Source of the DNA: Candidatus Omnitrophota bacterium
Lineage (GTDB): Bacteria > Omnitrophota > Omnitrophia > Omnitrophales > Aquincolibacteriaceae
DNA: 64,000 nucleotides
NCBI GenBank assembly: GCA_016930235.1
Contig: JAFGHI010000047.1
Location: 86,215-150,214 of the forward strand
Direction: 5' to 3'
Below are positions 8,598 to 43,577 of this stretch, one piece after another. The first letter of the stretch is position 1. Each line of letters begins with the position of its first letter. The position numbers and the translations under genes were made by a program. The notes beneath the pieces are model-generated. The model was not told the DNA's origin. It did not search any database and saw only the letters and a list, made by a program, of their open reading frames with translations.

Positions 8598-10193
8598 TTA
8601 TAAGGCGGCGAGTTTCTTCCGGCAAAGGAGAAGACTTCCTGTGCGACTTACGGGCTCATAAGCTTCATAACCGCATGTCATCTCTTTGGTTTCCCACTCG
8701 GCAGAAGAATAGAAGGTATCAGGCGGGTAATCGTAAATTTTCCAATCGATCTGTTTCCCTTTTTCGAAAAGCGCTGATAGACCGTCTCGGTAAAATAAAT
8801 CCCATAAAAGATAAGAAGGTTCGTGAAGTCCCATGCTTTTCTCATGAACAATGTGTTTTCTAAAAGAGAAAAAAGGAATAAGGGGTTCCTCAGTAGAAAC
8901 AGAATCCGTAGAAGGGATAAGCTTAATCACTTCCTGAATGTCCTTGGTATGTAACGCCAACACCCGCTGGTAAAAGAACCCTGTTTTGAGCTGATAAAGA
9001 TGGTATCTTGCTCCCTGAAAAGCAGCTGTCCCAATAATGAATAGGATGACTCCAAGAAAAAAATTTTTTGCAGCGGCGGAAGAGCCGTCTAATAACCCGG
9101 ATAATCGAGTCCATCCGACCGCCCCTGCGGCCATGATAAAGGGATGAAGCATCACCGTATAATGATCATTAATCCCCACATGGACAGCCCCGAAATTGGA
9201 AGCCAAGAAATTGAGCAATACAATGGGAGTAACGGCCAGCAACATCTCAAACCCAATAAAAGGCAAAAAAGCTAACGGGCCAAACCAGCTCCAAAAATAC
9301 CAAAAACCCACCGGATGGATCATTTGCATCAATACCGGGATCGGATTCTTCAGAAATCCAGTCAATGCTTCTTCTTTTGTGCTGCCCAAAGTCGAAAAAA
9401 GTCCGATATCGGACCAATTCGGCTCAAATATTTCCATGATCCAAAAGAAACTGACGACAAACCATAAAAGCCCACCAACAAACCATCCGATAAAATAAAT
9501 ATTCCTCCGGTGTTTTTCCGTCAAGCTTAAGTCCCCTTCGCGTCCCAACCACTGTTTGATTAACAACACAACTCCAAGCGCAGCCACACACAAACTAATA
9601 TATTCCTTAAACATACTCCCCAATAAAAACAATACCGTAGCCAGGCCATATTTTCGTTTGAATAGAAAATATAATCCGCCGGCCAAATATGGCGTTGCCC
9701 AATTCTCAAAATAAAAATGACTTAAAGGCGGTGTGTAAACAGTTAAATAGCAAAGTAAATAAATATAAGAGACCCAACTATTTTTAGTTATTTCACGAAC
9801 TAAGAGATAAACAAAAATACCCGCAATAAGAAAGGAGATGGCATGAATAAAAAGACCTGTCTCAAAAAACGGGAGGAATCGGAAAAAAAACCCGTAAAGG
9901 AACCCCATCGGCATGAAATGCTTGCCGAGAAAGAAATAAATTTCGCCCGGCTCCGCATAAGAAACGGGGATTTCAAAATGGCCGGCTTGCCATAAGGAGG
10001 TCAGGAGAATGCCCGTATCAGCCGCACCAAAGACATAATTGGAAAGCTTCGCCCAAGCAGAAAAAAAATACTGCAGAGAAAATAAGATAAGAATAGCTGT
10101 TAAAATCGGGTATTCTTTTTTTAAGATTTCATCTTTCAATTTCAATGAAAGGCATCTCCAATCTTGAAGAACTTTTAGGCGGGAAAATACCAA
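8598..10193 (-). CDS. polytopic membrane protein, DUF2079-like (last gene of the glycan operon)
   Basis: More than 10 hydrophobic helices, no soluble catalytic motif recognised. Family assignment is from memory of DUF2079 sequences. Converges with mutY (4-bp gap). Confidence 0.45.
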   Translation of the reverse strand: MVFSRLKVLQDWRCLSLKLKDEILKKEYPILTAILILFSLQYFFSAWAKLSNYVFGAADTGILLTSLWQAGHFEIPVSYAEPGEIYFFLGKHFMPMGFLYGFFFRFLPFFETGLFIHAISFLIAGIFVYLLVREITKNSWVSYIYLLCYLTVYTPPLSHFYFENWATPYLAGGLYFLFKRKYGLATVLFLLGSMFKEYISLCVAALGVVLLIKQWLGREGDLSLTEKHRRNIYFIGWFVGGLLWFVVSFFWIMEIFEPNWSDIGLFSTLGSTKEEALTGFLKNPIPVLMQMIHPVGFWYFWSWFGPLAFLPFIGFEMLLAVTPIVLLNFLASNFGAVHVGINDHYTVMLHPFIMAAGAVGWTRLSGLLDGSSAAAKNFFLGVILFIIGTAAFQGARYHLYQLKTGFFYQRVLALHTKDIQEVIKLIPSTDSVSTEEPLIPFFSFRKHIVHEKSMGLHEPSYLLWDLFYRDGLSALFEKGKQIDWKIYDYPPDTFYSSAEWETKEMTCGYEAYEPVSRTGSLLLCRKKLAAL

Positions 10194-12616
10194 GGCATAT
10201 ATTCCGGAACCATCGTTTTTATTTTTTCGATAACATCATCCCGACCAGCGCCTTGGCGAACGCTTGCCACTAACGACATAATCTGTTCATTAATATCAGA
10301 TGGCGGATCTTGTATCGACTTCCAAATCTTAATCTTCTTATGAGAGGTCGGCATAGCTTCTTCACTATGCATTTCGATCTCTTCATTCAATTTTTCCCCT
10401 GGCCGAAGCCCGATGTAACGGATAGGCACCGCTTCTCTGGGAAGTCCCATTAATTGAACAAGATCCTTTGCTAAATCAACGATCTTGACGGGTTCACCCA
10501 TATCTAAAATAAAAATTTCAGACTTGGATCCCATCGCTGTGGCCTGCAAGATCAGGAAAACAGCCTCGGAAATCTCCATGAAATACCGTTTAACATTGGG
10601 GTCTGTTATGGTGATCGGCCCCCCTTGCTCAATTTGTTTTCGAAAAAGCGGGACAACGCTCCCTTTACTATTGAAGACATTCCCAAATCGTACCGCCATA
10701 AAACGCGTCCCGCTATTCTTCAAGCTTTGAGTATAGAGTTCGGCAATCCTCTTCGTTGCGCCCATAATGCTCCTGGGACGAATGGCTTTGTCTGAGGAGA
10801 TGAGAACAAAACTCTCTGCCCCATGCTCTAACGCCAAGTCCGCCATAATCTTGGATCCGAGAATATTGTTAAAAACCCCCTCCATATAGTGAATCTCCAT
10901 CAACGGGACATGCTTGAAAGCTGCGGCGTGATAAATAACATGAGGTTTGTGGCGTGAAAATATTTTCTGCATCTCATCGTAATTCGTCACACTCCGCAAA
11001 TAGGCAGCAACGCTTGTTTCAGAGGCCTTATTCTGTAAATCCGTCTCAATTTCATAAAGATTGTTTTCGGAATTATCGATTAAAATGAGTTCTTGAGGAA
11101 AATTTTGATGGATAATCTTGCTTAATTCTGACCCGATGGATCCACCCGCTCCAGTAACTAGAATACGTTTATTTTTTAAAAAGTTCTGAATGCCCGTAAG
11201 ATCCGCCTGTACCAGCTCACGACCCAAAAGATCAGAAACTTCAATATTTCGTAAACGCAACGGCAATACCTGTGGAGACATCAAAGGTGATGCATGTGGA
11301 AGAATCCGGCAAATAATATCCAAAGAACGGCAAACCTTAATAATATTTCGAATTTCATCCCCCGAAGCTTCCGGAAGCGCAATAATCACCTCATCTGTTT
11401 TCGTCACCCGGATAACCTGCGCAAGCTGTGTAATCGTTCCGATAACTTTAACGCCATGAATTCTTACACCAATTTTCTGAGGATCATTGTCCACAAATCC
11501 AATCGGCCAATAGCCCAAATCCGGCCGCCGGATATACTCTCTGACCAAGAATTCTCCCGGGTCCTCGGCCCCGACAATAAGAACACGCTTGCGTAAATCA
11601 AACCGGGGCTTGCGCAATTTCTCTGCGGTAACTTTGAAAACAATCCGAAGCCCCCCGAGCGCCATAATCAGCATAAACCAATCAATAATCACAATGGACC
11701 GCGGAATCGGGATGATCTGCAAGAGAAAAGGAACAAGCGGTAACAATAGCGTTCCGACCGAAACAGCTTTAATGATCGAAATTAATTCTTGAATGCCAAG
11801 ATACTGCCATAAACTTTGATAGAGGCCGAAATAGATAAAGCAGGGCGCTCTTAATAAAAATACGAAAGGGATAAGAGTTTTTAAAATCATCATATCGGCA
11901 GGAGGAATATCCCCCTCAAACCGAAGCGCAAAAGCCACATAAAAACTGCCGGTGGAAATAATAAGATCAGCGATAAGAAAAGCAAACCTTCGCCGGCTTT
12001 CAAGGATATATCGAAACTTGATGGAACTTAAAAGAAGAGTTGCAACGCCGCCAAAAAGGAATTTCCAGTCTTTAAAAATATCTTTGTTTCTAACGTACGC
12101 TAAATCAGCCTCTATCTTTTTAGGCAGGATCTTCTTGATGTAAAACTCTTCGACATCCCCTTCCTCAGGAATCATGGATTCTTCATCCCGGTTCGTAATC
12201 TGGTTGGGCCCCATTAACCCAGGTTGTACTTTCAATATTTTTCGTTCCTCTAATGTATATGTCCCTACAATTTCAGGGACTTCCGGACGGGGGCCTACGA
12301 TACTCATTTCTCCTTTAAAAACGTTAATAAACTGGGGGAGTTCATCAATCTTTAGCCATCGCAGCAGCCCTCCGACCTGAGTCACTCTGGGATCATTCCG
12401 ACTTGTTATCTTTGCCCCAACCGTTTCCGCGCTCTCGATCATCGTCCTGAATTTTAGGATATAAAATACCTTACCGTCCTTACCGACTCTTTTCTGTTTA
12501 TAAATAATGGGCCCTGGGGAATCAGAGCGAATCATAATCGCAGCAACCAGCATAATCGGGCTGACCAATAAGAGGCACACAAGAGAGACAACAATATCAA
12601 ACAATCTTTTTGCCAT
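10175..12616 (-). CDS. bifunctional fusion: PglC-type small phosphoglycosyltransferase (N-terminus) + PglF/CapD-type membrane-anchored UDP-sugar 4,6-dehydratase (C-terminus)
   Basis: N-terminus: single TM then IIYKQKRVGKDGKVFYILKFRTM...DELPQFINVFKGEMSIVGPRPEVPE (bacterial sugar transferase signature). Then 4 TM helices. Then ILVTGAGGSIGSEL (Rossmann), HAAAFKHVPL / YxxxK region and GATKR, typical of CapD/PglF/WbpM. Confidence 0.8.
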   Translation of the reverse strand: MAKRLFDIVVSLVCLLLVSPIMLVAAIMIRSDSPGPIIYKQKRVGKDGKVFYILKFRTMIESAETVGAKITSRNDPRVTQVGGLLRWLKIDELPQFINVFKGEMSIVGPRPEVPEIVGTYTLEERKILKVQPGLMGPNQITNRDEESMIPEEGDVEEFYIKKILPKKIEADLAYVRNKDIFKDWKFLFGGVATLLLSSIKFRYILESRRRFAFLIADLIISTGSFYVAFALRFEGDIPPADMMILKTLIPFVFLLRAPCFIYFGLYQSLWQYLGIQELISIIKAVSVGTLLLPLVPFLLQIIPIPRSIVIIDWFMLIMALGGLRIVFKVTAEKLRKPRFDLRKRVLIVGAEDPGEFLVREYIRRPDLGYWPIGFVDNDPQKIGVRIHGVKVIGTITQLAQVIRVTKTDEVIIALPEASGDEIRNIIKVCRSLDIICRILPHASPLMSPQVLPLRLRNIEVSDLLGRELVQADLTGIQNFLKNKRILVTGAGGSIGSELSKIIHQNFPQELILIDNSENNLYEIETDLQNKASETSVAAYLRSVTNYDEMQKIFSRHKPHVIYHAAAFKHVPLMEIHYMEGVFNNILGSKIMADLALEHGAESFVLISSDKAIRPRSIMGATKRIAELYTQSLKNSGTRFMAVRFGNVFNSKGSVVPLFRKQIEQGGPITITDPNVKRYFMEISEAVFLILQATAMGSKSEIFILDMGEPVKIVDLAKDLVQLMGLPREAVPIRYIGLRPGEKLNEEIEMHSEEAMPTSHKKIKIWKSIQDPPSDINEQIMSLVASVRQGAGRDDVIEKIKTMVPEYMPWYFPA

Positions 12617-12640
12617 ATTAAAATTCGTCCCTTTGGTTCT

Positions 12641-13828
12641 TCATCGGCGAAAGCCCTTCACAATGTCACACACGGCAGAAACGACATCGTAAGCATCCTC
12701 GTCTGTCATCTTGGGGTATAGTGGCAATGAAATCATCCGTTGATATTCCTCATAAACCACAGGAAAGTCTTCTGGTTTAAACCCATAATTATTCCGATAA
12801 TAGGGATGCAAATGAATGGGAACGTAATGAACGCTGCTTCCGATATTCCTGCCCCGCAGCTCTTGAATAAATTGATCCCTCGAAAGAGAAAGTCGCTCCA
12901 AATTCAAGCGCAGGATATACAAGTGCCAGGCATGATCGACCCCTGTTTTTTCAGTCGGAATTTCAATTTCTCCAAGCTGAGAAAACGCCTGATGATAAAT
13001 TTTAACAATCTGTCTTCGGCGATCCATAAATTGAGGAAGTTTTCGCATTTGATGGATCCCGATCGCTGCTTGAAGGTCCATCATATTGTACTTAAACCCG
13101 GAAGCAATAACTTCATAATACCAGCTCCCTGTCTCAGAATAACGGTCCCAGGCATCGCGATCAATCCCGTGAAGGCTGTAAACTCTCGCTTTTTCAACCA
13201 AATCCCGACTCCCGGTTAACATCCCGCCTTCTCCGGTCGTCATATTTTTGGTAGCGTAAAAACTGAAGGCCGTCAAATCACCTATCGCTCCGATCATACG
13301 TCCATTGAATTTGGCTGGAATAGCATGAGCTGCATCTTCTAAGACGAACAACTGATACCGCTTGGCTAAATCCATAATTAAGTCCATATCACAAGGATGT
13401 CCAGCAAAATGGACAGGAAGAATTGCTTTAACTTTTTTATCTCTTGTTTTCCTAAGATTTTCTTCGATCTTGAAAGGGTCAATATTGAGAGTATCGCGCT
13501 GGATATCGACTAAAAGAGGAGTTGCACCCACCTGCTCGATTACGTGAACTCCTGAACAAAACGTCATGGGAGTCGTTATCACAACATCCCCTTGACCAAT
13601 TCCCATAGCTGCCAATGCAGTATGAAGCGCCCCGGTCCCGGAACTTAACCCCAACGCAGCTTGAGCTCCAACCAAACGGGCAAATTCTCCCTCAAATTTT
13701 TTAGTCCTCGGTCCGGTTGTGATCCAGTCGGATCGAAGAGTCTCGATCATTTCGATGATTTCCTCTTCCCCTAAAAGCGGAGGGGAAAAAGGCAGGAACG
13801 TTTGTCTTGGCTTCGTCTGGCCGCTCAT
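12641..13828 (-). CDS. DegT/DnrJ/EryC1/StrS-family PLP aminotransferase (PglE/WecE-like UDP-4-keto-6-deoxy-sugar aminotransferase)
   Basis: LPFSPPLLGEEEI...DWITTGPRTKKFEGEFARLVGA; SFYATKNMTTGEGG (PLP lysine region). Confidence 0.9.
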   Translation of the reverse strand: MSGQTKPRQTFLPFSPPLLGEEEIIEMIETLRSDWITTGPRTKKFEGEFARLVGAQAALGLSSGTGALHTALAAMGIGQGDVVITTPMTFCSGVHVIEQVGATPLLVDIQRDTLNIDPFKIEENLRKTRDKKVKAILPVHFAGHPCDMDLIMDLAKRYQLFVLEDAAHAIPAKFNGRMIGAIGDLTAFSFYATKNMTTGEGGMLTGSRDLVEKARVYSLHGIDRDAWDRYSETGSWYYEVIASGFKYNMMDLQAAIGIHQMRKLPQFMDRRRQIVKIYHQAFSQLGEIEIPTEKTGVDHAWHLYILRLNLERLSLSRDQFIQELRGRNIGSSVHYVPIHLHPYYRNNYGFKPEDFPVVYEEYQRMISLPLYPKMTDEDAYDVVSAVCDIVKGFRR

Positions 13829-14550
13829 TTTTTCTCCGGCAGTTGTTTGATAAAATAATACTTGAACAATGTCAGAACCGCAAAAAGAAAGTCTTTAGCC
13901 TTGATCTTTTTACCTTCCTTCGAGGTCCTGCCTTCATAAGAGATAGGCAGCTCCATAATCCGAATACCCTTCTTAGCTAAGAGCGCAGTCACTTCGGGCT
14001 CGAATGAAAAACGATTTGCCTTAAGGGCGAGATGTTTGACAATATCAGCTCTAAAGACCTTGTAGCAAGTCTCCATATCGGTCAATGGAAGTTTAAACAA
14101 TAAATTAGTCAGAAATGTCAAAAAACGGTTTGCCATCCAATTAGGCCAAGCCATTCCTTTGGGATAACAGCATCCGAGAAAACGGCTCCCATAAACGACG
14201 TCGGCTTCACCCTTTAAGATAGGGTCCAATAATTTTGGTATCTCCGACGGCTTATATTCAGTATCGGCATCTTGGATAACAATCAGTTCCCCATGCGCTT
14301 GGCGAATTCCCTTCCGGATCGAATAGCCTTTCCCGCGATTAATTCTATTTTTAAATAAACGGATATTATTGTCCTCGTGCCTATTCTTTAATCTGATCAT
14401 CGTTTCCTTTTCATAGGTTCTATCAATGGAGGCATCATCGACGATAATGATCTCATGCGCAATAGGATATTTGACCGATTGCACATAATGGATAAGCTGT
14501 GCAATGGTATTATGCTCATTATACGTAGGGATAATGATTGACAATTTCAT
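13825..14550 (-). CDS. glycosyltransferase family 2 (polyprenyl-phosphate sugar synthase-like)
   Basis: MKLSIIIPTYNEHNTIAQL...IIIVDDASIDRT...VIQDADTEY (DXD). Start taken at the internal ATG, which forms an ATGA overlap with the upstream gene; the ORF-track start is 14652. Confidence 0.85.
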   Translation of the reverse strand: MKLSIIIPTYNEHNTIAQLIHYVQSVKYPIAHEIIIVDDASIDRTYEKETMIRLKNRHEDNNIRLFKNRINRGKGYSIRKGIRQAHGELIVIQDADTEYKPSEIPKLLDPILKGEADVVYGSRFLGCCYPKGMAWPNWMANRFLTFLTNLLFKLPLTDMETCYKVFRADIVKHLALKANRFSFEPEVTALLAKKGIRIMELPISYEGRTSKEGKKIKAKDFLFAVLTLFKYYFIKQLPEKK

Positions 14551-15257: not shown

Positions 15258-15281
15258 CCGTTTTTACTTTGCCCTTCGCTA

Positions 15282-33024: not shown

Positions 33025-33057
33025 GACTCACTCCTTTTCAATAAACTCTTTTTGAAC

Positions 33058-36066: not shown

Positions 36067-38561
36067 AGCGAATAGTCTCTGTGGGTTTTCGCCCTGTTCA
36101 TTTTCATGCTTGTTTGTTCCACAACTTCAAGAATCGCATCGGCAGTTTTCTCCCACGTGAAGGACTTAGCTCGAGCTAAACCGAGATCTCTTTGCTTCTG
36201 CTTCCAGCCTTGACCTTGTTGACTCATTCTCCAGATCGCATCAGAAATGGATTCGGCATCGTTTGGATCAAAAGGCAATCCAACATTACCTGCGACTTCC
36301 GGCAATGTTGTCGCCGAAGAGTAAAGGACAAGACATTGGCATGCCATCGCTTCAAATAACACCAAACCAAACCCTTCGAAAATTGAAGGGTAAATCATCG
36401 CCTCGGCACCGGAATATAAAACCGGCAATTCCCGGGGTAGCACTTCACCCAATATCACGACATTCTCTGATAAACCCAATTCTCTCATCCCGCTTTTGAT
36501 TTTTTCGGCCGATTCCTTCCATTCCAACGACCCGCTTAACACTAATTGATAGGGCCATTGATCTTTCTTTTTAAGTATTGCTACGGCCTCAAATAATTTT
36601 CTGTGGTTCTTATGGGGCCAAAATCCAGCCGGATAAAATAAATAAGGTTTGTGGATTTTGTATTTTGAGCGAATCGGGAGGACTTCATCCTCCGATTTTC
36701 TTGTAAAGAACCCGCTATCAACCCCGTAGGGGACGACATAAATTTTATTTCCTTCAATCCCGTATGTTTCCATAATTGTCTTTTTAGTGTGGTCGGCCGG
36801 GGCAATGATGGCATCGGCATGGGTTACGGCTTCTCGGTATTGCTTACGCTTAGCATGCCTCGTTTTAAACTCGTCAATATATTCATAAATCAAATCATGG
36901 ACGACGACAATCGAGGGCAAACAAATCGACCGATCGATATCCGGAGAAGGATATAATACAGCGCCGATGGATGAATCTTTTTCGATCATCTTCGCCACGG
37001 ATTCCTCTCGAGCGAATCCTCTCAATAATTTCTTCACCGCTCGTTTCCAAAGAGGGGCGGGTTCCCATGTCGGGATAACTGTTAGTTTCATACGATGATC
37101 CAAAAAAGGCTTCCACAAATGCCCATTTTGATTTGATGCCATAATGACAGACTCAAAGGGCTTCTTCATCTCGGCAAACCCCTTCATAATTCCCTGCGAA
37201 AATGTTTTCCCTCCATACAACTTATATGCAGGAACATCAAGCATAGAAATTGCAAATTTGAATCTCGACGCTGTTTCATTATCAACTCGACCCCGGACTT
37301 CTGTTTTAAGAGAAACAACTTCCGTCACGAAATCAAGATAATCATCCGCTACTTTATTGTGATCATAGAGCCGGCTCATTCTTTCAAAACCAGCTACGCC
37401 CATGTTTTTAAGCATTTTTGCATCGCTTGCAAGCCGGATAATCGCTTCGGACAATTCAATGCCATGATCAGGTTTCACGAGTATTCCCGTTACTTGATCC
37501 TCTACTGTTTCGGCGATTCCCCCAATCCGGGATGCAACCACCGGAATACCCATCGCCGCCGCTTGAGCGCATGTATAAGAAAAACTCTCATAGATGAGCG
37601 ATGGAACAACCGCAAGATCAGCTCTTCTGTACCATTGTAGAAGTGTCTCCTGATCAACAAAACCCACGCAGGTAACCTGTGCTTCTAGCCCAGCATTTTT
37701 AAAATATTGTTTCATTCTCTGACCTTGAGTTTGCTTTTCTCCGTAATATCTGTCTTCACCAATGATCACAAAATGAATATTTTTGACATCCGCGCACACT
37801 TTCGATATGGCATTTTTAAGAACCTCAATCCCCTTCACCCTCTCAAGCCGTCCGACATACAGGACAATCTTTTTGCCAGTAAGCTTACCTTCCGGATCTA
37901 CCTTTGAATATTCAGTTTTGTCTTGAGTTAACCGGGCGGTTTCAAACATCTTCAAATCTAACGAATTGGGAATGACCTTCTTTATGGAATTCTTCGATGA
38001 GCAAACGCTCAGTATGACCCTCATCATATCTCCCGAGGGCGCTGTAATTCCATCTGCGCGACAAATACAATATTTCTCCATCCACTCAATTACGGCTGTG
38101 GAAAAAGGCATCTCGGAAGGGGCATAATACTTTTTTAAAATAAAAATAGGCGTATGACAACGGACAAGAACAGGATGTCTCTTTTTTCTTAATAGATGAA
38201 AAAAACCTTCGCCCTCAACCTCTGCAAATTCAATACAATCAATGGGAATGGTTCTTTCAAGCTTTTTTAACTTTTGGGAAACTTTAAAGCTGTAAAAGAG
38301 TTGATTCGCGGTACGGAAAAACCGGCCCACCAGAAACAATCGTGTCGGCCAATAGGGAGAAGCATGATAAATTCGATGAACTGCTATCCCTTCTCTTTCT
38401 TCAATCTCCGGGATTTCTTTAGTACAACGAGAAGCAACGATCGTCACACGATGACCTTTCTTCACTAATGCTTTTGAAAGATAGTAATTACACATAGCAA
38501 TCCCGCCATATCCGCTGTGCGGCGGAAACCAGCGATTGACCAAAACGATGCTATAGCTCAT
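36063..38561 (-). CDS. tandem GT4 - GT4 glycosyltransferase (about 830 aa)
   Basis: MSYSIVLVNRWFPPHSGYGGIAMCNYYLSKAL... with AQAAAMGIPVVASRIGGIAETVEDQVTGILV. A second unit follows, ending ...FEAMACQCLVLYSSATTLPEV. Start set at the ATG with ATGA overlap; the ORF-track start is 38606. Confidence 0.8.
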   Translation of the reverse strand: MSYSIVLVNRWFPPHSGYGGIAMCNYYLSKALVKKGHRVTIVASRCTKEIPEIEEREGIAVHRIYHASPYWPTRLFLVGRFFRTANQLFYSFKVSQKLKKLERTIPIDCIEFAEVEGEGFFHLLRKKRHPVLVRCHTPIFILKKYYAPSEMPFSTAVIEWMEKYCICRADGITAPSGDMMRVILSVCSSKNSIKKVIPNSLDLKMFETARLTQDKTEYSKVDPEGKLTGKKIVLYVGRLERVKGIEVLKNAISKVCADVKNIHFVIIGEDRYYGEKQTQGQRMKQYFKNAGLEAQVTCVGFVDQETLLQWYRRADLAVVPSLIYESFSYTCAQAAAMGIPVVASRIGGIAETVEDQVTGILVKPDHGIELSEAIIRLASDAKMLKNMGVAGFERMSRLYDHNKVADDYLDFVTEVVSLKTEVRGRVDNETASRFKFAISMLDVPAYKLYGGKTFSQGIMKGFAEMKKPFESVIMASNQNGHLWKPFLDHRMKLTVIPTWEPAPLWKRAVKKLLRGFAREESVAKMIEKDSSIGAVLYPSPDIDRSICLPSIVVVHDLIYEYIDEFKTRHAKRKQYREAVTHADAIIAPADHTKKTIMETYGIEGNKIYVVPYGVDSGFFTRKSEDEVLPIRSKYKIHKPYLFYPAGFWPHKNHRKLFEAVAILKKKDQWPYQLVLSGSLEWKESAEKIKSGMRELGLSENVVILGEVLPRELPVLYSGAEAMIYPSIFEGFGLVLFEAMACQCLVLYSSATTLPEVAGNVGLPFDPNDAESISDAIWRMSQQGQGWKQKQRDLGLARAKSFTWEKTADAILEVVEQTSMKMNRAKTHRDYSL

Positions 38562-40657
38562 ACGCCTGATTTCTCCTTTAAATGCCGACAATGGATTAAA
38601 GGACAATCGATATAGCCGGGATAAAGAATATTCACTGAATGGTACCGCCTTTGAAGGCTGTCCACCAATTGATCGAAAGAGTAACGATGATCACGCGGGG
38701 GGTTATGTACCTCCATCCAAATTTCTTCAATCGGTATCTTAAAGAAATTTGGATCTTCTAAAATTACATTATATTCCCCCCCTTCAATATCCATTTTAAA
38801 AAGATCGACTTTTGTTATCCCGTTATCTTGGCAAAATTGAGAAAAACTCTTGCTTTGAACTTCAACCTTCTCATCTGGAAACTCCGCGTTATAAGGATAG
38901 AGAGAGGAGAAACCGGACATTTTAGATATATAAAAATCTGTAAGCGTTCCTGGCTGAGACTGGATTGCAAAGTGATAAGGATAAATTTTCCCTTTAAAAC
39001 ATTCTTGCCGCGCGGTCCTCTCCAACACCTCATAAACATAAGGATTGGCTTCTATGGCATGAACTTCCGAATTTGGCATCTTCATATGGGCCAAAAGGGA
39101 GAAAAGGCCGATATGAGCACCGACATCAACAACTATTTTTTTATTCCGACCATATCGAATTCGGTAATTCTCCGTAACAAATATTTCGTCAAAAACCCTC
39201 CAACTAGTAAAACTATCATAAACTTTGACCCTGGCGCCGCATCGGAACAAAAACTCCCGAATTTCGACTTTGTCAGTTCGTGCCGCTAAATACTGCCTCC
39301 AATTCTTAAGATAAAAAAATGCTTTAAACCGGACCATCCAATAAGCAGGCCGCCAAGCGAAATAACGCTTCCACAAATCATCAACCCTTGCGCTAAAATC
39401 AGCCCTTTCAACCGTGATGGATCTTTCCAATATCTTTTCAAAATTCCTGGAGGCTATTTCCCAATTCCATTTATCACGAACATATTGTTTCCCTTTTTGA
39501 GACATCGATTTCCAAAGATCCTCTTCTTTAATAAGCTTCAGCACTTTTGAAGCAAATTCCTGGGGATCAAAATCGGAAAGAAACCCTACTTCTCCATCCA
39601 ATACGGTTTCCCGAACACCCCCCGACTTAACGGCTACCACAGGAAGGCCCATAGCCATCGCTTCGAGCGGCGCCATTCCAAAGGGCTCTAGTCTTGAGCC
39701 GTAGACGAAAACTTTGGCTGTGCCATAAAGTTCGCATAATTCTTTCTCTGAAACCCTTTCTCTAATTTCTACTTGAACCTCTAAGTTTTCACAAAGCCGA
39801 ATAAGGTTCTTGCGACGCTCTTCGCGACAGCAATCAACAACAACCACCCATCGGGGGCGTTTGTCTTTGGGAATCAAACTCAAAGCTCTTACGACAAAGG
39901 CATGCCCTTTATTTGCCGTCAAGGACCCCACTGTTAAAACAAAGTTTCCGCGTTCCGGTCCCGTAGGCGCCATCACGAATCGCTCTAAATCAATGGCCGG
40001 ATAAAAAACTTTCGCTTCATAACCATAAGCCATAAAGATTTTCTCAGCTGAGAAATAAGAGTTTGCTAATACCGTCCCGTGACAGCATCTCGGAAAATTT
40101 TTATCGGCCTCCTTTTTCCACAAATAATGAAATAGAGCAATTGCTGGTTTATACCAAATCGAGACTATCTTGGAAACTAGCGGCTTGGCTTCCCCATCGT
40201 TTTCCAGCTCATCATGAAAAAGTGCCGGCGGGTCATAAAAAAGGCGTTCCGGTTCCTGAAGGTAAAGAAAAAAACGTGTTTTAAGATACCGGGTTAAATG
40301 GGGAATTTTGACATATTGATCAATCCCGATAAAAACGAAATCGTAATTTTTCCGGTCTATTTCTTTCGCTAATATTTTTGCGGTTTGATCCAGGGATCTG
40401 AGATTTCTCCAAAAAAAGTATGCATTAACATACTCACGAATGATCGGACAATGCCCAGAAATACGCGGCTTTAAAAAAACAGGGATTTCATAGCACTCAT
40501 CAGCCATGGATGATAGAGGAGAAAAATCTTCCCCAGCTTTGTTAAACCGATAGAGATCTAAGTGATACCCCATCGCTTTCAACATCTTCATGACACCATG
40601 GAGTAAAACAACCGCTCCGCCGAGATGATGGTGATTAAAGACGGCTACCTTTTTCAT
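38558..40657 (-). CDS. GT4 glycosyltransferase fused to a C-terminal FkbM-family methyltransferase
   Basis: N-terminus MKKVAVFNHHHLGGAVVLLHGVMKM...LEAMAMGLPVVAVKSGGVRETVLDGEVGFL (GT4). C-terminus IVVDVGAHIGLFSLLAHMKMPNSEVHAIEANPYVYEVLER (FkbM-type motif). The first in-window start codon is TTG at 40681; the ATG at 40657 is preferred. Confidence 0.8.
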   Translation of the reverse strand: MKKVAVFNHHHLGGAVVLLHGVMKMLKAMGYHLDLYRFNKAGEDFSPLSSMADECYEIPVFLKPRISGHCPIIREYVNAYFFWRNLRSLDQTAKILAKEIDRKNYDFVFIGIDQYVKIPHLTRYLKTRFFLYLQEPERLFYDPPALFHDELENDGEAKPLVSKIVSIWYKPAIALFHYLWKKEADKNFPRCCHGTVLANSYFSAEKIFMAYGYEAKVFYPAIDLERFVMAPTGPERGNFVLTVGSLTANKGHAFVVRALSLIPKDKRPRWVVVVDCCREERRKNLIRLCENLEVQVEIRERVSEKELCELYGTAKVFVYGSRLEPFGMAPLEAMAMGLPVVAVKSGGVRETVLDGEVGFLSDFDPQEFASKVLKLIKEEDLWKSMSQKGKQYVRDKWNWEIASRNFEKILERSITVERADFSARVDDLWKRYFAWRPAYWMVRFKAFFYLKNWRQYLAARTDKVEIREFLFRCGARVKVYDSFTSWRVFDEIFVTENYRIRYGRNKKIVVDVGAHIGLFSLLAHMKMPNSEVHAIEANPYVYEVLERTARQECFKGKIYPYHFAIQSQPGTLTDFYISKMSGFSSLYPYNAEFPDEKVEVQSKSFSQFCQDNGITKVDLFKMDIEGGEYNVILEDPNFFKIPIEEIWMEVHNPPRDHRYSFDQLVDSLQRRYHSVNILYPGYIDCPLIHCRHLKEKSGV

Positions 40658-40691
40658 GAATAATTTTTCTTTATCATTCAAAGAACATGCG

Positions 40692-42572
40692 TTAAAAGAA
40701 TTTTTGCTCTTCCCAATATTGGTAAAACTTACCTTTCTTTTCTATCAACTCATTAAGCATACCTTCCTCAGCCAAACTCCCGTTTTCAATCACAAGGATC
40801 TTGTCAGCATGTTTAACGGTTGATAACCGGTGCGCAATCACGATAGAGGTTCTTCCCTTGACAGCTACATCGATTGCTGTCTGAATTAATCGCTCGGTTC
40901 GCGAATCAAGTGCGCTTGTGGCTTCATCTAAAATAAGTATTTCTGCTTCTTTAAGAAGGGCCCTTGCAATAGCCACCCGTTGTTTTTCACCGCCTGAGAG
41001 CCTGACACCACGGTCACCTATCATGGTATCGAGCTTCTCCGGTAACCGACTGACAAACTCACTCAGTTGCGCTTTGGCAATGGCTTCATAAATTTTTTCT
41101 TCCGGGCACTTCCCCTCTAATCCATAGGTAATATTTGCTCTGAGCGTATCATTAAACAGCAATACGTCCTGACTGATAAAAGAGATGTGCTGTCTTAACG
41201 ATTGAAAAGTAAATTCCCTGATATCTGCTCCATCAACTAATATTGTCCCCGGGGGACAGTCATAAAAGCGCATGAGTAAGTTGATGATCGTTGTTTTCCC
41301 TGCTCCCGTAGGACCGACTATCGCAATCATCTTTCCTTTCTCGATGCTGAAACTTAGATCTTTTAATATGGGCGTATTCTTAAAATAAGAAAAACTCATG
41401 CCCTTAAATTGAATCTCTTTTTCAAGTCCATTGAATTGAACCGCACCTTCGATGACAAAATATTTATCCTTATCATCACGCATCTGCATAATTTTTGAAA
41501 TAGGGCCGCTCGTCCTAGCCAAAGCCAACCTCATTCGATTAAGAACGCCGAATGACCCCATCGCACGCCGAATGACAAAAAAGAACACCAAAAGACTAGA
41601 AATTTCCGCTGCTTGTTCCTTGACGATCACAAAAGCCATCGAGCCCACCAAGATCAGCAGTGCTGCTAAAGTAATAATTTCATGAAGCGGCTGGATAAGA
41701 AACTGCTTTTTAGTCATGCTCACCTGAATCTCTGCAATTAAATCACTGGCCTTTGCAAATTTCTTTTTTTCATCTTCCTCTTTGGTGTAGGCTTTCACCA
41801 AAGGGATGCAAGACAAGATATTAAAAATATCTTCGCTGAGGCTCTGGCTCGCTTGTGCGAAATAGCTTGAGGTTCTTCTCATGTTCTTAACCAGCCAGCT
41901 CAGCGAATAATGCAAGATGGGAAAAACAATTAGACTGAAGATGGTCAATTTCCATGAAAGGAAAAGCATCAAGGCCAAGTAGATAAAAAGAAGGAAGACT
42001 TCAGACAGAAGGGCATGCGCTTCCCGGATCATATACCCTAATTCATGAGTAAACCCTCCCAGCACGGTATGGAGATATCCGGTATTATTCCTGTCAAAAA
42101 ACATCTTGCCGAAGCTTAAATAACGCTCGAAGATTAATTTTCTCAAATTACTGCAAAATTTTTCAATTTGATAGGCAAGCAAAACCGTCGAGCCATACAT
42201 CAAAACATTCTTCGTGACACTCGCAAAGAAAATGACCGCAATAATTAACAAAAAGGTATAGGCGTTCGGTCTTTCATATATGACCTCTGGCATCATATTA
42301 ACAAGATTCCCAAGGATGGGCATCTCGCGAATAAAGCTATAGTCTCTCTCAATCATTCCCTTCATCATGGGGACAAGAAGACCTATGCTAATACCCTCAA
42401 AGACAGCTCCAAGTAACGAAAGAATTGCCGGGATCACTAACAGAATGGGTTTCGCATCCAACCCTCGCATAAAATCTCGCAAGTACCTGAAGGTAAGATA
42501 AATCCTTGCGTTTTGGAGCTTTTCTTTGAGGATCCTTTTACTCTCTCGTTTTTTTTCTGTCCAATAACTCAT
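40692..42572 (-). CDS. ABC exporter, fused TMD-NBD half-transporter (MsbA/PglK-like lipid-linked glycan or lipid flippase)
   Basis: 6 TM helices, then GPTGAGKTTIINLL (Walker A), LSGGEKQRVAIARAL (signature), ILILDEATSALD (Walker B), IVIAHRLSTV (H-loop). Confidence 0.9.
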   Translation of the reverse strand: MSYWTEKKRESKRILKEKLQNARIYLTFRYLRDFMRGLDAKPILLVIPAILSLLGAVFEGISIGLLVPMMKGMIERDYSFIREMPILGNLVNMMPEVIYERPNAYTFLLIIAVIFFASVTKNVLMYGSTVLLAYQIEKFCSNLRKLIFERYLSFGKMFFDRNNTGYLHTVLGGFTHELGYMIREAHALLSEVFLLFIYLALMLFLSWKLTIFSLIVFPILHYSLSWLVKNMRRTSSYFAQASQSLSEDIFNILSCIPLVKAYTKEEDEKKKFAKASDLIAEIQVSMTKKQFLIQPLHEIITLAALLILVGSMAFVIVKEQAAEISSLLVFFFVIRRAMGSFGVLNRMRLALARTSGPISKIMQMRDDKDKYFVIEGAVQFNGLEKEIQFKGMSFSYFKNTPILKDLSFSIEKGKMIAIVGPTGAGKTTIINLLMRFYDCPPGTILVDGADIREFTFQSLRQHISFISQDVLLFNDTLRANITYGLEGKCPEEKIYEAIAKAQLSEFVSRLPEKLDTMIGDRGVRLSGGEKQRVAIARALLKEAEILILDEATSALDSRTERLIQTAIDVAVKGRTSIVIAHRLSTVKHADKILVIENGSLAEEGMLNELIEKKGKFYQYWEEQKFF

Positions 42573-42693
42573 GATGGGGTCCGACTTTCCTTGTTCCCGT
42601 TTGGGTGTTTAGCTACAGCTTCGCCCTCTCAGTCCCAAATATCCTTCATGGAACCTACGAGGTCATATCCAACTAACAAGTTACTAGCTTTCT

Positions 42694-43323
42694 TTAAAGC
42701 GGTTGAACACAAGCTTCGTCCACTTGGACTGACACCGATTGCATTAATAAATCAAGCGAGATGACCAAACGGCAGTGCCGATCCTTGCGGACGATATACC
42801 CTTCCGTTCCTTTAAAAGGACCTGTTGAAATATAAACCCGGGCGCCTTCTTTTAAGTAAGGGAACGGATCCAAAGGTATTTCCTCCTCGACAAATTTTCG
42901 AAGACTTACAATATCCTTCTCGGGAACTTCGATCGGATTCGACGGCTTAGGCCCTACAAATCGAACAGCGCCGGCAGTATTTAGCACCTGCCATCTTTCC
43001 TTGAAAGGAATACGAACGAAAAGATACCCTTTGAACAAAGGCTCCTCGATCAATTTTTTGCGATCGGACCATTGCCGTGAAATTCGTCTCATGGGCAGAA
43101 AGGTTTCGATCCCTTTCTTTTGTAATTCCCGATCCGTTAACTTTTCATGCCGGCTCTTGGCATAAAGTGCAAACCAACGTACCTGGTTCCACTTCTTCTT
43201 GATTCCCTCATCCCAAGAAACAGCATTCCAAGATTCTTGCGACTCTTGAATCATGGGATAATCCCCCGTGAAGACAGTTAGAAAACACGGAAATTTATAC
43301 TCATTCTCCCGCGTCTTCCTCAA
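42694..43323 (-). CDS. NusG-family paralog (NGN + KOW), operon-specific transcription antiterminator of the RfaH/UpxY/LoaP type
   Basis: NGN: VRWFALYAKSRHEKLTDRELQKKGIETFLPM...EEPLFKGYLFVRIPF. KOW: EGARVYISTGPFKGTEGYIVRKD. About 40 N-terminal residues fall outside the NGN fold. The ORF-track start is TTG at 43323; an internal ATG lies at about 43254 (MIQESQ). Confidence 0.75.
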   Translation of the reverse strand: MRKTRENEYKFPCFLTVFTGDYPMIQESQESWNAVSWDEGIKKKWNQVRWFALYAKSRHEKLTDRELQKKGIETFLPMRRISRQWSDRKKLIEEPLFKGYLFVRIPFKERWQVLNTAGAVRFVGPKPSNPIEVPEKDIVSLRKFVEEEIPLDPFPYLKEGARVYISTGPFKGTEGYIVRKDRHCRLVISLDLLMQSVSVQVDEACVQPL

Positions 43324-43358
43324 TCTCCATTTAATTCAACGGTGAACTAGGAAGAGGG

Positions 43359-43577
43359 CTACGAATTGTTCATTCGGTTAAGGAGCCAGGCATCTAAAAC
43401 ATCTTTCTTAAAACGCCATTGCCCGCCTATTTTAGTAGCCGGAATCTCCTGTTTTTTCAAAAGGCGGTATATCGTCACCAAGTGAAAACCAAGATATTTG
43501 GCCGCTTCCTTTGGCGTCATGATTTGGGTTCTCTCATGCCTGCGTCTTTCTGGGTGTTCTGACTTCTGGGGATCCAT
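43359..43577 (-). CDS. excisionase-family helix-turn-helix DNA-binding protein (MerR-superfamily HTH_17), first gene of the operon
   Basis: MTPKEAAKYLGFHLVTIYRLLKKQEIPATKIGGQWRFKKDVLDAWL, 72 aa. ATG at 43577 is preceded by AAGGAG 7 nt upstream. Confidence 0.7.
   Translation of the reverse strand: MDPQKSEHPERRRHERTQIMTPKEAAKYLGFHLVTIYRLLKKQEIPATKIGGQWRFKKDVLDAWLLNRMNNS

Follow-up and report, generated by a model that had tools for sequence, protein, structure and literature searches.

Analysis of a 64,000-nucleotide window (the whole stretch of DNA examined) suggests, with a probability of roughly 0.6, that the gene run at positions 8598–43577 constitutes the principal strain-variable locus for surface glycan in an Omnitrophota bacterium, specifying a lipid-linked, ABC-exported glycan and transcribed as one antiterminated unit. 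Judged from the sequence, the product is most likely O-antigen-like, and both its methylation and its ligation by a Wzy_C protein are probable. The substance of the earlier note holds, in that a packed single glycan locus with an ABC exporter, a Wzy_C protein and numerous embedded methyltransferases and without Wzx, Wzz or Wza was recovered; the type of exporter, several domain counts and the supposed uniqueness of the methyltransferase content require revision.

The ORF survey of this region gave an unbroken run of 28 ORFs on the minus strand (29 genes had been counted previously), with coding sequence occupying about 99% of the span. The 27 junctions comprise 16 start/stop overlaps and 11 gaps (2, 5, 15, 15, 24, 24, 33, 34, 100, 104 and 121 bp), these counts depending on the choice of the most plausible start codons. 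Eleven of the overlaps are of the 4-base ATGA/GTGA type, in line with the many ATGA overlaps already reported, and the other five measure 1, 8, 11, 19 and 22 nt. The claim that no gap exceeds 121 bp is true if the 84-residue ORF at 22585–22839 is counted as a gene; leaving it out opens a gap of 256 bp. Internal promoters or terminators splitting the region, a possibility raised in the earlier note, were sought, and such sites were no commoner than in shuffled sequence (promoter-like sites, 34 versus 36.6 and 24 versus 36.4; terminator-like sites, 26 versus 22.2 and 24 versus 22.7). The chromosomal slot is conserved, with PRTase/SpoU on one side and MutY/ThyA on the other; the last gene runs convergently towards mutY, whose end is at 8593. 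The features, in the direction of transcription, are as follows.

44501–44538, no strand assigned, perfect palindrome of 19+19 nt with A7/T7 flanks, arms 100% complementary with 0 nt between them
43652–43680, minus, candidate operon promoter TTGACA-17-TATCTT (promoter scan and alignment with relatives)
43359–43577, minus, HTH_17 (excisionase/MerR-like) DNA-binding protein, 72 residues, first gene (domain match and relatives)
42694–43254, minus, UpxY-family NusG paralogue, NGN + KOW, 186 residues (Pfam NusG, NCBIfam)
42615–42637, minus, 23-nt ops-like element TGGGACTGAGAGGGCGAAGCTGT, core GCGAAGC, in the 121 bp leader before the first biosynthetic gene
40692–42572, minus, fused TMD–NBD ABC exporter of MsbA/PglK/HepA type (Pfam ABC_membrane and ABC_tran, NCBIfam)
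38558–40657, minus, GT4 + FkbM-family methyltransferase fusion (Pfam, NCBIfam)
36063–38561, minus, double GT4 glycosyltransferase (Pfam)
33058–36066, minus, GT4–GT4–methyltransferase, three modules, 1002 residues (Pfam)
32200–33024, minus, SAM methyltransferase, stop overlapping the next GT4 start (ATGA) (Pfam)
31091–32203, minus, GT4 glycosyltransferase (Pfam)
30172–31098, minus, GT2 glycosyltransferase (Pfam, NCBIfam)
29012–30169, minus, GT4 glycosyltransferase (Pfam)
28096–28911, minus, SAM methyltransferase (Pfam)
26826–28106, minus, GT-C membrane glycosyltransferase, PMT_2 (Pfam)
24832–26829, minus, GT39/PMT_2-like GT-C with about ten TM-like segments followed by a soluble C-terminal domain, about 290 residues long (homologues)
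23690–24835, minus, GT4 glycosyltransferase (Pfam)
22845–23690, minus, SAM methyltransferase (Pfam)
22585–22839, minus, 84-residue ORF without a family match, which may be the C-terminal remnant of an SGNH hydrolase (DGIHLS)
21722–22588, minus, UbiA-family polyprenyl-phosphate phosphoribosyltransferase, DPPR-synthase type (Pfam UbiA, NCBIfam)
20210–21706, minus, Wzy_C membrane protein of the O-antigen ligase, O-oligosaccharyltransferase or polymerase family (Pfam)
19406–20194, minus, polysaccharide deacetylase, NodB/PgaB/ArnD fold (Pfam)
18630–19409, minus, GT2 glycosyltransferase (Pfam)
17425–18651, minus, GT4 glycosyltransferase (Pfam)
16283–17428, minus, GT9 (heptosyltransferase-family) glycosyltransferase (Pfam, NCBIfam)
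15282–16286, minus, GT2 glycosyltransferase with two C-terminal TM-like segments (Pfam)
14547–15257, minus, SAM methyltransferase (Pfam, relatives)
13825–14550, minus, GT2 with best matches to the polyprenyl-phosphate sugar synthases AglJ, PpgS and ArnC, all below cut-offs
12641–13828, minus, DegT/PglE/PseC-type sugar aminotransferase (Pfam, NCBIfam)
10175–12616, minus, PglC-type phosphoglycosyltransferase fused to a PglF-type membrane 4,6-dehydratase (Pfam, NCBIfam, relatives)
8598–10193, minus, DUF2079 polytopic membrane protein, GT-C-like, last gene (Pfam)

The palindrome is a predicted bidirectional terminator-like hairpin between the upstream PRTase/SpoU genes and the glycan operon. The −35 hexamer of the candidate promoter is conserved across the six loci compared, and a TATCAA upstream of it is also kept in relatives. 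The HTH_17 gene precedes upxY in seven of eight examined Omnitrophota-family relatives. UpxY scores 144 bits against NCBIfam NF033644, above the family cut-off of 100, and an identical NCBI protein carries the name UpxY family antiterminator; the first two genes of the run thus do not encode glycan enzymes. This regulatory head of conserved promoter, HTH_17, UpxY and ops-like element was absent from the earlier note. The combination of the UpxY antiterminator, the element and the promoter is the best available evidence for a single transcription unit.

The 23-nt element lies between upxY and the exporter gene, 42 nt ahead of the start of the latter, and occurs once in the window, where 0.01 chance matches are expected. 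It is found between upxY and the next gene in all nine independently fetched UpxY loci, despite a lack of alignment in the flanking sequence. Exact matches in metagenomes number at least 120, on contigs of 33–67% GC. A UpxY ORF on the same strand directly adjoins the motif in 75 of 121 instances, and an opposite-strand neighbour in none; homologues of the glycan proteins of the window lie downstream of it at 18 of 70 loci, versus upstream at three of 73. The Bacteroides fragilis opsE (CTGCGAAGCATA) has the identical core GCGAAGC, and this core fits the published ops hairpin consensus YGCGNAGCR, the Escherichia coli ops being GCGGTAGC (PMC11685472).

Profile searches identified nine GT4 catalytic modules (four single modules, two double ones and one in the FkbM fusion); the count of at least 12 given earlier is reached only if N- and C-terminal Pfam half-domains are tallied separately. 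There are four GT2 genes rather than five, the single GT9 was confirmed by its family match, and the GT-C-type membrane proteins number three instead of two (PMT_2, the 665-residue GT39-like protein and DUF2079). The GT39-like protein has no Pfam match of its own, and its homologues carry PF13231. The six SAM-methyltransferase modules proposed were all recovered, as four free-standing proteins, one fused to GT4–GT4 and one FkbM fused to GT4. The free-standing methyltransferases, all coupled to or embedded among glycosyltransferase genes, have only generic NCBIfam matches. From the fusions and the translational coupling, we infer that methyl groups are placed on sugar hydroxyls; N-methylation of the amino sugar, or methylation of a non-sugar target, is an alternative possibility. 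The GT4–methyltransferase fusions can be likened to WbdD. They also resemble WsaE, in which two glycosyltransferases and a methyltransferase are combined and which caps an ABC-exported S-layer glycan that a Wzy_C protein then transfers (PMC2943079). The density of methyltransferases, described as unusually high, is not unique, since a relative has five such genes in its first 10 kb.

The exporter carries ABC_membrane and ABC_tran on one polypeptide, as a half-transporter, an architecture that rules out an ABC-2 Wzm/Wzt pair. Its best NCBIfam score is with HepA_fam (509 bits; cut-off 725), followed by MsbA (405; 602) and PglK (237; 1000), so that no curated cut-off for these three models was passed. 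No Polysacc_synt (Wzx), Wzz or Poly_export domain was found in the ORFs of the region or its flanks, as had been reported. Since canonical Wzm/Wzt fills the same chromosomal slot in five relatives (with a Wzt_C domain in three), the window exporter most likely does the job proposed for it, ABC-dependent export of a putative glycan substrate, albeit as an MsbA-like protein. Because of this transporter type, E. coli O8/O9a and Klebsiella O12, suggested previously for comparison, are not the closest models; Helicobacter pylori Wzk/WaaL, which pairs a PglK-like ABC flippase with WaaL (PMC2841628), and Campylobacter jejuni PglK/PglC/PglF/PglE are each closer in parts.

Family profiles also matched the remaining enzymes named in the earlier note, namely the deacetylase, the aminotransferase, the PglC–PglF-like fusion, the UbiA-family phosphoribosyltransferase and the Wzy_C protein. 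The UbiA-family protein passes the DPPR-synthase model NF008977 (246 bits; cut-off 234). The Wzy_C protein has a Pfam score of 45 bits and no match in a PDB sequence search, and its sequence cannot assign it as ligase, O-oligosaccharyltransferase or polymerase. The window lacks genes for a PglD-type acetyltransferase, a DprE1/E2 epimerase and heptose nucleotide-sugar synthesis.

In relatives the two ends of the locus are retained while its interior varies, with cassettes of 21, 32 and 35 kb measured at the same site. The position after upxY, filled here by the MsbA-like ABC protein, is often held by Wzm/Wzt (with or without Wzt_C) in relatives; some relatives are also methyltransferase-rich, and one has GT9, Wzy_C, PMT_2 and at least three methyltransferases in its cassette. 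The PglC/PglF fusion gene is the conserved last anchor. The run MT–GT2–DegT–PglC/PglF closes the locus in relative L153, and in relative L154 methyltransferase, GT2 and PglC/PglF genes also stand at the end, but are ordered differently.

In the proposed pathway, transcription would start at the one conserved sigma70-like promoter (43680–43652) and pass through HTH_17 and upxY to the ops-like element (42637–42615), where RNA polymerase would pause. The model follows RfaH/ops and Bacteroides UpxY/opsX by analogy: the operon's own UpxY would load onto the paused enzyme and make it resistant to termination and polarity across the 34 kb of translationally coupled genes that follow. A 4-amino-4,6-dideoxy-HexNAc-type sugar would be formed by the PglF-like dehydratase together with the DegT aminotransferase and placed on undecaprenyl phosphate by the fused PglC-like transferase. 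At the cytoplasmic face the nine GT4, up to three GT2 and one GT9 modules would lengthen the chain, and the six methyltransferase modules, of which two are joined to GT4 modules as in WsaE or WbdD, would methylate it; the conserved tail genes (MT–GT2–DegT–PglC/PglF) would make primer and adaptor, and the variable head genes the bulk and cap. Once the MsbA/PglK-like protein has carried the completed lipid-linked glycan over the inner membrane, the three GT-C-type enzymes could attach side residues in the periplasm from polyprenyl-phosphate sugars supplied by the UbiA-type phosphoribosyltransferase and the PpgS/ArnC-like GT2. The deacetylase may work on such a donor or on the product. The Wzy_C protein would transfer the glycan en bloc to an acceptor, somewhat more likely lipid A–core than a surface protein.

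It is possible, though doubtful, that the product is a protein O-glycan of an S-layer or outer-membrane protein, with Wzy_C serving as an O-oligosaccharyltransferase of PglL/WsaB type instead of a WaaL ligase and the pathway otherwise unchanged. Wzy_C is shared by PglL, PilO and WsaB (PMC2943079), initiation uses a PglC/PglF/PglE-like module of the kind seen in bacillosamine-based protein glycosylation, and a putative O-glycosylation ligase is the sole NCBIfam match (28 bits) for the Wzy_C protein. However, this protein has no TPR domain, profile search found no PglL_A or Wzy_C_2 signature, and no S-layer gene adjoins it; GT9, an LPS-core heptosyltransferase family, occurs here and in a relative's cassette, and O-antigen loci classically take the form of a hypervariable cassette at a fixed chromosomal site. 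Quite unlikely is a mere co-location of two or more co-oriented glycan modules, one for an exported polymer (22.8–42.6 kb) and one for core, linker or periplasmic modification (8.6–22.6 kb), the latter possibly with its own internal promoter. The 256 bp stretch with its doubtful ORF, together with the G+C minimum of the cluster at 20–23 kb, could mark the junction, and promoter-like hexamers occur within the cluster (e.g. 22738–22711 and 22614–22587). The contrast between conserved tail and variable head genes points the same way, as does the grouping of GT2, deacetylase, GT-C and UbiA genes, which resembles a self-contained lipid-linked sugar modification of Arn or PpgS type. Nevertheless, such promoter-like sites are not in excess over shuffles, GT-C genes occur in both halves, only a single conserved promoter and a single ops-like element were found, and a relative's 32 kb cassette has the same split layout. 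Moreover, one pathway needs both halves because the initiating transferase is encoded at the far 3′ end, the exporter at the opposite (5′) end.

The 23-nt element might instead act in RNA, as a ribosome-binding or start-codon context or by binding some other factor, which is rather unlikely. The motif lies just upstream of a UpxY coding region in 54 of 121 instances, mostly within about 30 nt, and in the closest two dozen or so its final AT and the next G can make a start codon, with GAGAGGG placed like a Shine–Dalgarno sequence. Its 5′ part pairs with upstream sequence in 62% of cases versus 36% in shuffles; the stability of the 36 nt upstream did not exceed controls, leaving an RNA hairpin there weakly supported. 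Against this, the motif marks no ORF start in the window or in any of the eight related Omnitrophota loci, falling 56–138 nt after the upxY stop, its invariant core matches the ops hairpins defined by experiment in Bacteroides and E. coli, and an Rfam search returned no match. Under the preferred reading, of an antiterminated surface-glycan operon, the glycan cluster itself is a fairly ordinary locus of a known kind, and the chief new lead is the 23-nt recruitment-like signal, shared without alteration by very different bacteria.

All substantial open reading frames (ORFs) between positions 8598 and 43577 lie on the minus strand, and the listing of short ORFs adds one of 84 residues (22585–22839) and one of 72 residues (43359–43577), giving a total of 28. 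Start codons were picked by position relative to the upstream stop, and two of the picked starts coincide with gene calls of an independent assembly. Eleven of the 27 junctions are 4-base ATGA/GTGA overlaps, five further overlaps measure 1, 8, 11, 19 and 22 nt and the remaining 11 are gaps of 2, 5, 15, 15, 24, 24, 33, 34, 100, 104 and 121 bp; ∼99% of the 34,980-bp span is coding. The single unbroken run proposed in an earlier note on this DNA is real, with 28 same-strand ORFs, 16 overlaps and a largest gap of 121 bp. At the 3′ end the stop of the last gene lies 4 nt from that of the convergent mutY. Promoter-like and terminator-like consensus matches within the locus show no excess over dinucleotide shuffles. 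A single transcription unit is supported most strongly by the antitermination head, which the earlier note overlooked.

Features of the locus in transcription order
44501–44538, 5′ of the locus: perfect palindrome of 19 + 19 nt with A7/T7 flanks, lying between the locus and the PRTase and SpoU genes
43680–43652, minus strand: candidate promoter, TTGACA-17-TATCTT
43359–43577, minus strand: gene 1, HTH_17 DNA-binding protein
42694–43254, minus strand: gene 2, UpxY-family NusG paralogue (NCBIfam NF033644, 144 bits against a cut-off of 100)
42615–42637, minus strand: 23-nt ops-like element
40692–42572, minus strand: gene 3, fused ABC_membrane and ABC_tran exporter of 626 aa with six TM-like segments
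Minus strand: genes 4–6, GT4-FkbM; GT4-GT4; GT4-GT4-methyltransferase
Minus strand: genes 7–11, methyltransferase; GT4; GT2; GT4; methyltransferase
Minus strand: gene 12, GT-C (PMT_2)
Minus strand: gene 13, 665-aa polytopic protein with no Pfam match of its own; homologues carry PF13231
Minus strand: genes 14–16, GT4; methyltransferase; 84-aa ORF (22585–22839)
Minus strand: gene 17, UbiA-family decaprenyl-phosphate phosphoribosyltransferase (NF008977, 246 bits against a cut-off of 234)
Minus strand: genes 18–19, Wzy_C protein (45 bits against a cut-off of 31.7); polysaccharide deacetylase
Minus strand: genes 20–24, GT2; GT4; GT9; GT2; methyltransferase
Minus strand: gene 25, GT2 with best matches to the polyprenyl-phosphate sugar synthases AglJ, PpgS and ArnC, each below cut-off
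Minus strand: gene 26, DegT aminotransferase (PseC 375 against 423, ArnB 368 against 631)
10175–12616, minus strand: gene 27, PglC-type phosphoglycosyltransferase fused to a PglF-type dehydratase
8598–10193, minus strand: gene 28, DUF2079

The locus contains 9 GT4, 4 GT2 and 1 GT9 modules, 3 GT-C-type proteins and 6 methyltransferase modules. The earlier note correctly described a run of glycan genes, but its numbers of GT4 (at least 12), GT2 (5) and GT-C (2) domains are superseded by these counts. DUF2079 is a putative member of the Pfam GT-C clan, and the 665-aa protein is identical to a protein named 'glycosyltransferase family 39 protein [Candidatus Omnitrophica bacterium]' by NCBI. The GT and methyltransferase paralogues of the locus share at most 33% pairwise identity and the window contains no long DNA repeats, which rules out recent duplication as the source of their density. 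In sequence searches of the PDB, neither the 665-aa protein nor the Wzy_C protein had a match, and the three-module GT4-GT4-methyltransferase protein had generic GT4 matches only. No tRNA genes were found in the window, and no Rfam family reached the gathering threshold over its whole length, with only noise around the leader at E values of up to 10.

None of the window ORFs scanned carries a flippase, Wzz/PCP or OPX domain of a Wzx/Wzy-dependent pathway (Wzx, Wzz, Wza and Wzc; profiles Polysacc_synt, Wzz and Poly_export). A separate ABC-2 permease and ATPase of the Wzm/Wzt type and a Wzt_C domain are likewise absent from the window, the fused ABC protein being its sole transporter. The interpretation of the locus as encoding an ABC-exported glycan stands in outline, but the transporter class used as its model (Wzm/Wzt) has to be replaced by a fused MsbA-like exporter. 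The exporter is an MsbA-fold half-transporter encoded among glycan genes, as in systems of the PglK/Wzk kind, with best models that all fall below cut-off (HepA_fam, 509 against 725; MsbA, 405 against 602; PglK, NF050066, 237 bits against 1000), such that orthology to PglK is not supported at the equivalog level; its nearest homologues are from Omnitrophota. The initiating enzyme is of the Bac_transf (PglC/WbaP) type, fused to PglF, and not of the WecA (MraY-like) type. PglC-, PglF- and PglE-like domains are all present in the cluster and no acetyltransferase (PglD or other) is, whereas one relative has a Hexapep gene 3′ of DegT. The UbiA-family protein, which scores above the NF008977 cut-off, would correspond to the synthesis of a polyprenyl-phosphoribose donor; no FAD-oxidase or matching SDR pair resembling the DprE1/DprE2 2′-epimerase, by which a ribose donor is turned into an arabinose donor, was found among the window ORFs, and such genes could lie elsewhere in the genome. 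Given the absence of both a PglD-type acetyltransferase and DprE1/E2 from the cluster, the pentose donor may be ribofuranose, or the epimerase may be encoded elsewhere. The transfer enzyme belongs to the Wzy_C family, an assignment from sequence that does not extend to the subtype, and there is no match to STT3 (PglB); WaaL, PglL and Wzy share one fold, so that structure prediction or a fold search could not separate them. Multi-domain glycosyltransferases (GT4-GT4, GT4-GT4-methyltransferase and GT4-FkbM) are present as architectures, which may have polymerizing or chain-terminating roles.

Three window proteins are identical to NCBI 'Candidatus Omnitrophica bacterium' MAG entries and also occur in the Logan assembly of run SRR13394437. 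An anammox source (Kuenenia or Brocadia), initially suspected from the G+C content and from publications on methylated S-layer glycans, was rejected in view of these identities and of the Omnitrophota affiliation of the nearest ABC homologues. Homologues of UpxY number in the hundreds (60–73% identity), and the surroundings of eight of them were fetched and compared. Seven of the eight loci share a common frame (PepA, RsmB-like, GDPD, SpoU, PRTase, a small opposite-strand ORF, HTH_17 and UpxY), and the content downstream of this frame is different in each. The gene after upxY encodes Wzm/Wzt in five loci (L150–L152, L155 and L156, with Wzt_C detected in L150–L152) and an MsbA-like ABC protein in the window and two loci, followed by varied sets of GT4, GT2, methyltransferase, sulfotransferase, acyltransferase, NeuB and pyruvyl-transferase genes. 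The far end is again kept: orthologues of the PglC–PglF fusion (61–65% identity) close the cassette beside convergent GCV_T and MutY genes, continuing in locus L154 with rSAM, ThyA, DHFR and MBL-fold genes as in the window. The fusion is preceded by methyltransferase, GT2 and DegT genes in L153 and by methyltransferase and GT2 genes in another order in L154. Cassette sizes, obtained for the relatives by joining overlapping loci, are ∼21 kb (L155 and L153), ∼32 kb (contig SRR28401841_20, L156 to L154) and 35 kb in the window. The 32-kb relative also encodes GT9, Wzy_C, PMT_2 and at least three methyltransferases, and another relative has five methyltransferase genes within its first 10 kb. The common flanks and ends and the differing interiors indicate that the locus is a surface-glycan cassette that is hypervariable in content, keeps its head and tail and sits in a fixed chromosomal slot. 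Polysaccharide cassettes that vary between populations are described in a preprint on Omnitrophota genomes (10.64898/2026.06.07.730766).

In the eighth locus (L029, 4631–9902), Wza (Poly_export), Wzc (Wzz and AAA_31) and a 687-aa Wzy_C-TPR protein are encoded immediately 5′ of upxY and an MsbA-like ABC gene follows it, an arrangement indicating that OPX/PCP export parts and an ABC exporter can coexist around a UpxY regulator. The PglC–PglF fusion (Bac_transf, CoA_binding_3 and Polysacc_synt_2; ∼810–870 aa) is widespread (homologues P0130–P0249) and is found in Omnitrophica, KSB1, Armatimonadetes, Nitrospinaceae and Deltaproteobacteria MAGs. Within the window cassette, the 84-aa ORF at 22585–22839 (minus strand) ends in a DGIHLS-type motif resembling the last block of SGNH/GDSL hydrolases, lacks the N-terminal half of such an enzyme and has no Pfam match. 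This doubtful gene falls at 20–23 kb, where the G+C content of the cluster is lowest, and the two together may mark an old cassette junction or remnant.

Several other ORFs lie on the 5′ side of the locus. An ORF of 169 residues on the plus strand (43984–44493), for which Pfam gives no match, has an N-terminus resembling a signal peptide and a tail rich in Ser; in seven of the eight relatives an unannotated opposite-strand ORF of 154–164 residues is found at this position, between the PRTase and HTH_17 genes. A 461-aa ORF at 48829–50214 (minus strand) has no Pfam match, and relatives carry an RsmB/F-type methyltransferase of 339–439 residues there. Two minus-strand ORFs lie at 53133–53492 and 53521–53937; one, of 119 residues, matches positions 1–110 of 237 of the TauE/SafE sulfite-exporter profile and may be a truncated or split gene, and its neighbour is an RNase H/RVT_3-type ORF. 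A giant minus-strand ORF of at least 2995 residues (54989–63976) contains class I methyltransferase and ELFV-dehydrogenase domains with HEAT and TPR repeats. Its start lies 24 nt short of the end of the window, past which the ORF probably extends. It fits the multi-enzyme giant proteins reported for Omnitrophota, and one relative encodes a 6398-aa phosphorylase/GDE/GH77 protein on the same side of the locus.

The second gene of the locus passes the UpxY family model and falls below the cut-offs of the RfaH, LoaP and NusG models; its score of 78 bits against an RfaH cut-off of 144.5 indicates that this NusG paralogue is not an RfaH. No UpxZ trans-inhibitor gene follows upxY, the next gene being the ABC exporter. 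Upstream of HTH_17 a −35 hexamer, TTGAC(A/T), and an adjacent (A/T)TCAA box are kept in six loci while their surroundings drift. A Bacteroides-type invertible promoter was ruled out, as no convincing inverted repeats flank the promoter.

The gap between upxY and the ABC gene (121 bp) has, in the first four loci fetched, a sole common block, TGkGACyGArrGGGCGAAGCTrT. This element is single-copy in the window (42615–42637; chance expectation 0.01 matches) and lies between upxY and the following gene in all nine independently fetched UpxY loci. Inside it, in the leader, is an ops-type sequence (GGGCGAAGCT at 42617–42626), the core of which, GCGAAGC, is identical to that of Bacteroides fragilis opsE and fits the core of the hairpin consensus, the bases flanking the core differing from Y and R. 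The published non-template-strand hairpin consensus is YGCGNAGCR, with opsE reading CTGCGAAGCATA and Escherichia coli ops reading GCGGTAGC (PMC11685472). A search of the literature found no paper pairing the 23-nt sequence with NusG, and no Rfam family matched it.

An exact-match scan of metagenome contigs produced at least 120 matches, and nothing around the 23-mer aligns between contigs. Among the matches listed, the 23-mer is essentially invariant across genomes of 33–67% G+C and also stands alone before glycan genes. UpxY ORFs near the motif were located by searching all ORFs with an HMM built from the UpxY homologues; among the matches listed, a same-strand UpxY ORF adjoins the motif in 75 of 121 instances and an opposite-strand UpxY ORF in none. 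The motif lies just 5′ of the UpxY ORF in 54 of these 75, and in many of the 54 its final AT together with a G forms the start codon (e.g. 4541–4563(−) in contig L042; also L036, L061 and L068), with the GAGAGGG of abutting copies placed like a ribosome-binding site. It lies 3′ of upxY in 15, as it does in the window, mostly 56–138 nt past the stop, and overlaps the predicted start in six. There are two fixed architectures, with the motif abutting upxY in most non-Omnitrophota contigs (metagenome loci L030–L149) and following upxY in the Omnitrophota family. Same-strand ORFs matching the glycan proteins of the window occur downstream in 18 of 70 loci versus upstream in three of 73, among the matches listed. 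One contig (L088) has two motif copies (648–670 and 841–863), 193 nt apart, before one UpxY gene.

We put at roughly one half the probability that this sequence serves one widespread UpxY-type clade as a hitherto undescribed recruitment site spanning phyla, a 'universal ops'. No UpxY ORF is found at 46 motif loci, including 12245–12267(−) in contig L043, and some of these copies lie directly 5′ of a PglC/PglF homologue (L043). Such copies could be targets in trans, as in the RfaH/ops system, or alternatively short-contig artefacts. A generic stable RNA hairpin 5′ of the motif was rejected, as the 36 nt preceding it do not have a lower minimum free energy than random or control windows. The GkGAC of the motif pairs with upstream sequence in 62% of instances versus 36% with the upstream sequence shuffled, and a pause-hairpin analogue at the motif is weakly supported.

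Recruited NusG paralogues have been shown to act as antiterminators in the RfaH system and, in Bacteroides, in that of UpxY. By the same mechanism, a single transcript would initiate near 43645, RNA polymerase would pause at the ops-like site (within GCGAAGCTGT) and the operon's own UpxY would load there, suppressing termination and polarity across the next 34 kb. A perfect 8-bp palindrome followed by T7 (TTATGGGG-TAT-CCCCATAA; 30261–30279), within the GT2 gene at 30172–31098, is a strong intrinsic-terminator look-alike and could be the type of site that an antiterminator must override.

In the first step of the predicted pathway, the PglF-like, DegT and PglC-like functions would make a 4-amino-4,6-dideoxy-HexNAc-type sugar and place it on undecaprenyl phosphate, and chain extension and methylation would follow on the cytoplasmic face, the conserved tail genes presumably supplying the primer and adaptor and the variable head genes the bulk and cap. 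The six methyltransferases suggest internal and terminal methylation, with N-methylation of the amino sugar also possible. The MsbA-like ABC protein, which occupies the same position as Wzm/Wzt in sister genomes, would export the glycan; Helicobacter pylori Wzk, which works with WaaL, is a precedent for such an exporter (PMC2841628). In the periplasm, GT-C enzymes may decorate the glycan from polyprenyl-phosphate donors produced by the UbiA-type enzyme and the PpgS/ArnC-like GT2, the deacetylase would act on the donor or the product and the Wzy_C protein would pass the glycan to its acceptor. We lean towards lipid A-core as this acceptor, on account of the GT9 genes and of a population pattern resembling that of O-antigens. 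A serious alternative is a protein acceptor, given the heavily methylated O-glycan on the S-layer of the PVC bacterium Kuenenia (PMC5088730).

The head of the locus resembles the Bacteroides UpxY/opsX capsule operons (B. fragilis PSA–PSH), with which it shares a UpxY-family NusG paralogue heading a long polysaccharide operon, a GCGNAGC leader element with a core identical to that of opsE and many co-directional coupled GT genes downstream. It differs in lacking a UpxZ gene and an invertible promoter, in having an HTH_17 gene before upxY and in the position of the element after upxY instead of before it; moreover, its 23-nt sequence is invariant across phyla, whereas the Bacteroides opsX sites are ∼40 bp and locus-specific. 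The RfaH/ops system (JUMPStart) of proteobacterial LPS, capsule and F-pilus operons shares recruitment of a NusG paralogue at a short leader element (by analogy in the window), the GCG..AGC hairpin logic and long envelope-glycan operons, but RfaH is encoded elsewhere and acts in trans, whereas the window UpxY is encoded in its own operon.

Among glycan pathways, the H. pylori WecA/Wzk/WaaL and Campylobacter jejuni Pgl systems, in which a fused MsbA-like ABC protein moves a complete undecaprenyl-PP-linked glycan for en bloc transfer, are likened to the window by their genes, and Pgl also shares PglC-, PglF- and PglE-like initiation enzymes. Unlike these, the window lacks PglB (STT3) and PglD, its exporter misses the PglK and MsbA equivalog cut-offs and its cluster, which includes GT-C decoration enzymes and six methyltransferases, greatly exceeds theirs in size. 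Multi-module GT4 proteins, ABC export and a Wzy_C transfer enzyme are shared with E. coli O8/O9a WbdA/WbdD and Geobacillus stearothermophilus WsaE/Wzm/Wzt/WsaB; the GT4-GT4-methyltransferase protein follows the same GT-GT-methyltransferase module logic as WsaE, the enzyme that assembles an S-layer glycan for ABC export and caps it with methyl groups (PMC2943079). The Wzm/Wzt transporters of these systems (some with Wzt_C) occupy the same slot in relatives of the window but are absent from the window itself, and its initiation is of the PglC type and not of the WecA type of O8/O9a. A DPPR-synthase-type UbiA, a PpgS/ArnC-like GT2, a NodB-fold deacetylase and several GT-C enzymes in one cluster recall mycobacterial UbiA/DPPR-EmbA-C and PpgS/Rv3779 and the ArnC/ArnD/ArnT system, but genes for the DprE1/DprE2 epimerase, ArnA and the small flippase were not found in the window and the GT2 matches are below their cut-offs.

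The glycan cluster is large, yet it belongs to known kinds and is not exceptional among them, and its parts were already named by the NCBI pipeline. What merits follow-up is the 23-nt ops-like element, which is invariant and associated with UpxY genes in very different genomes. Omnitrophota are tiny, often host-dependent bacteria, and to our knowledge nothing is known experimentally about their cell surface. The locus is an obvious candidate for a strain-variable surface antigen of these organisms and predicts a heavily modified, probably methylated, lipid-linked glycan. Its regulatory head extends the UpxY/ops antitermination logic, hitherto worked out in gut Bacteroides, to another phylum, and the 23-nt sequence provides a tag with which any genome can be searched for operons under UpxY/ops control. 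If the 'universal ops' reading is true, antiterminated polysaccharide regulons would become readable from sequence in uncultivated phyla (Omnitrophota and soil lineages), and the 35-kb operon would be a natural test of how far one antiterminator carries RNA polymerase.
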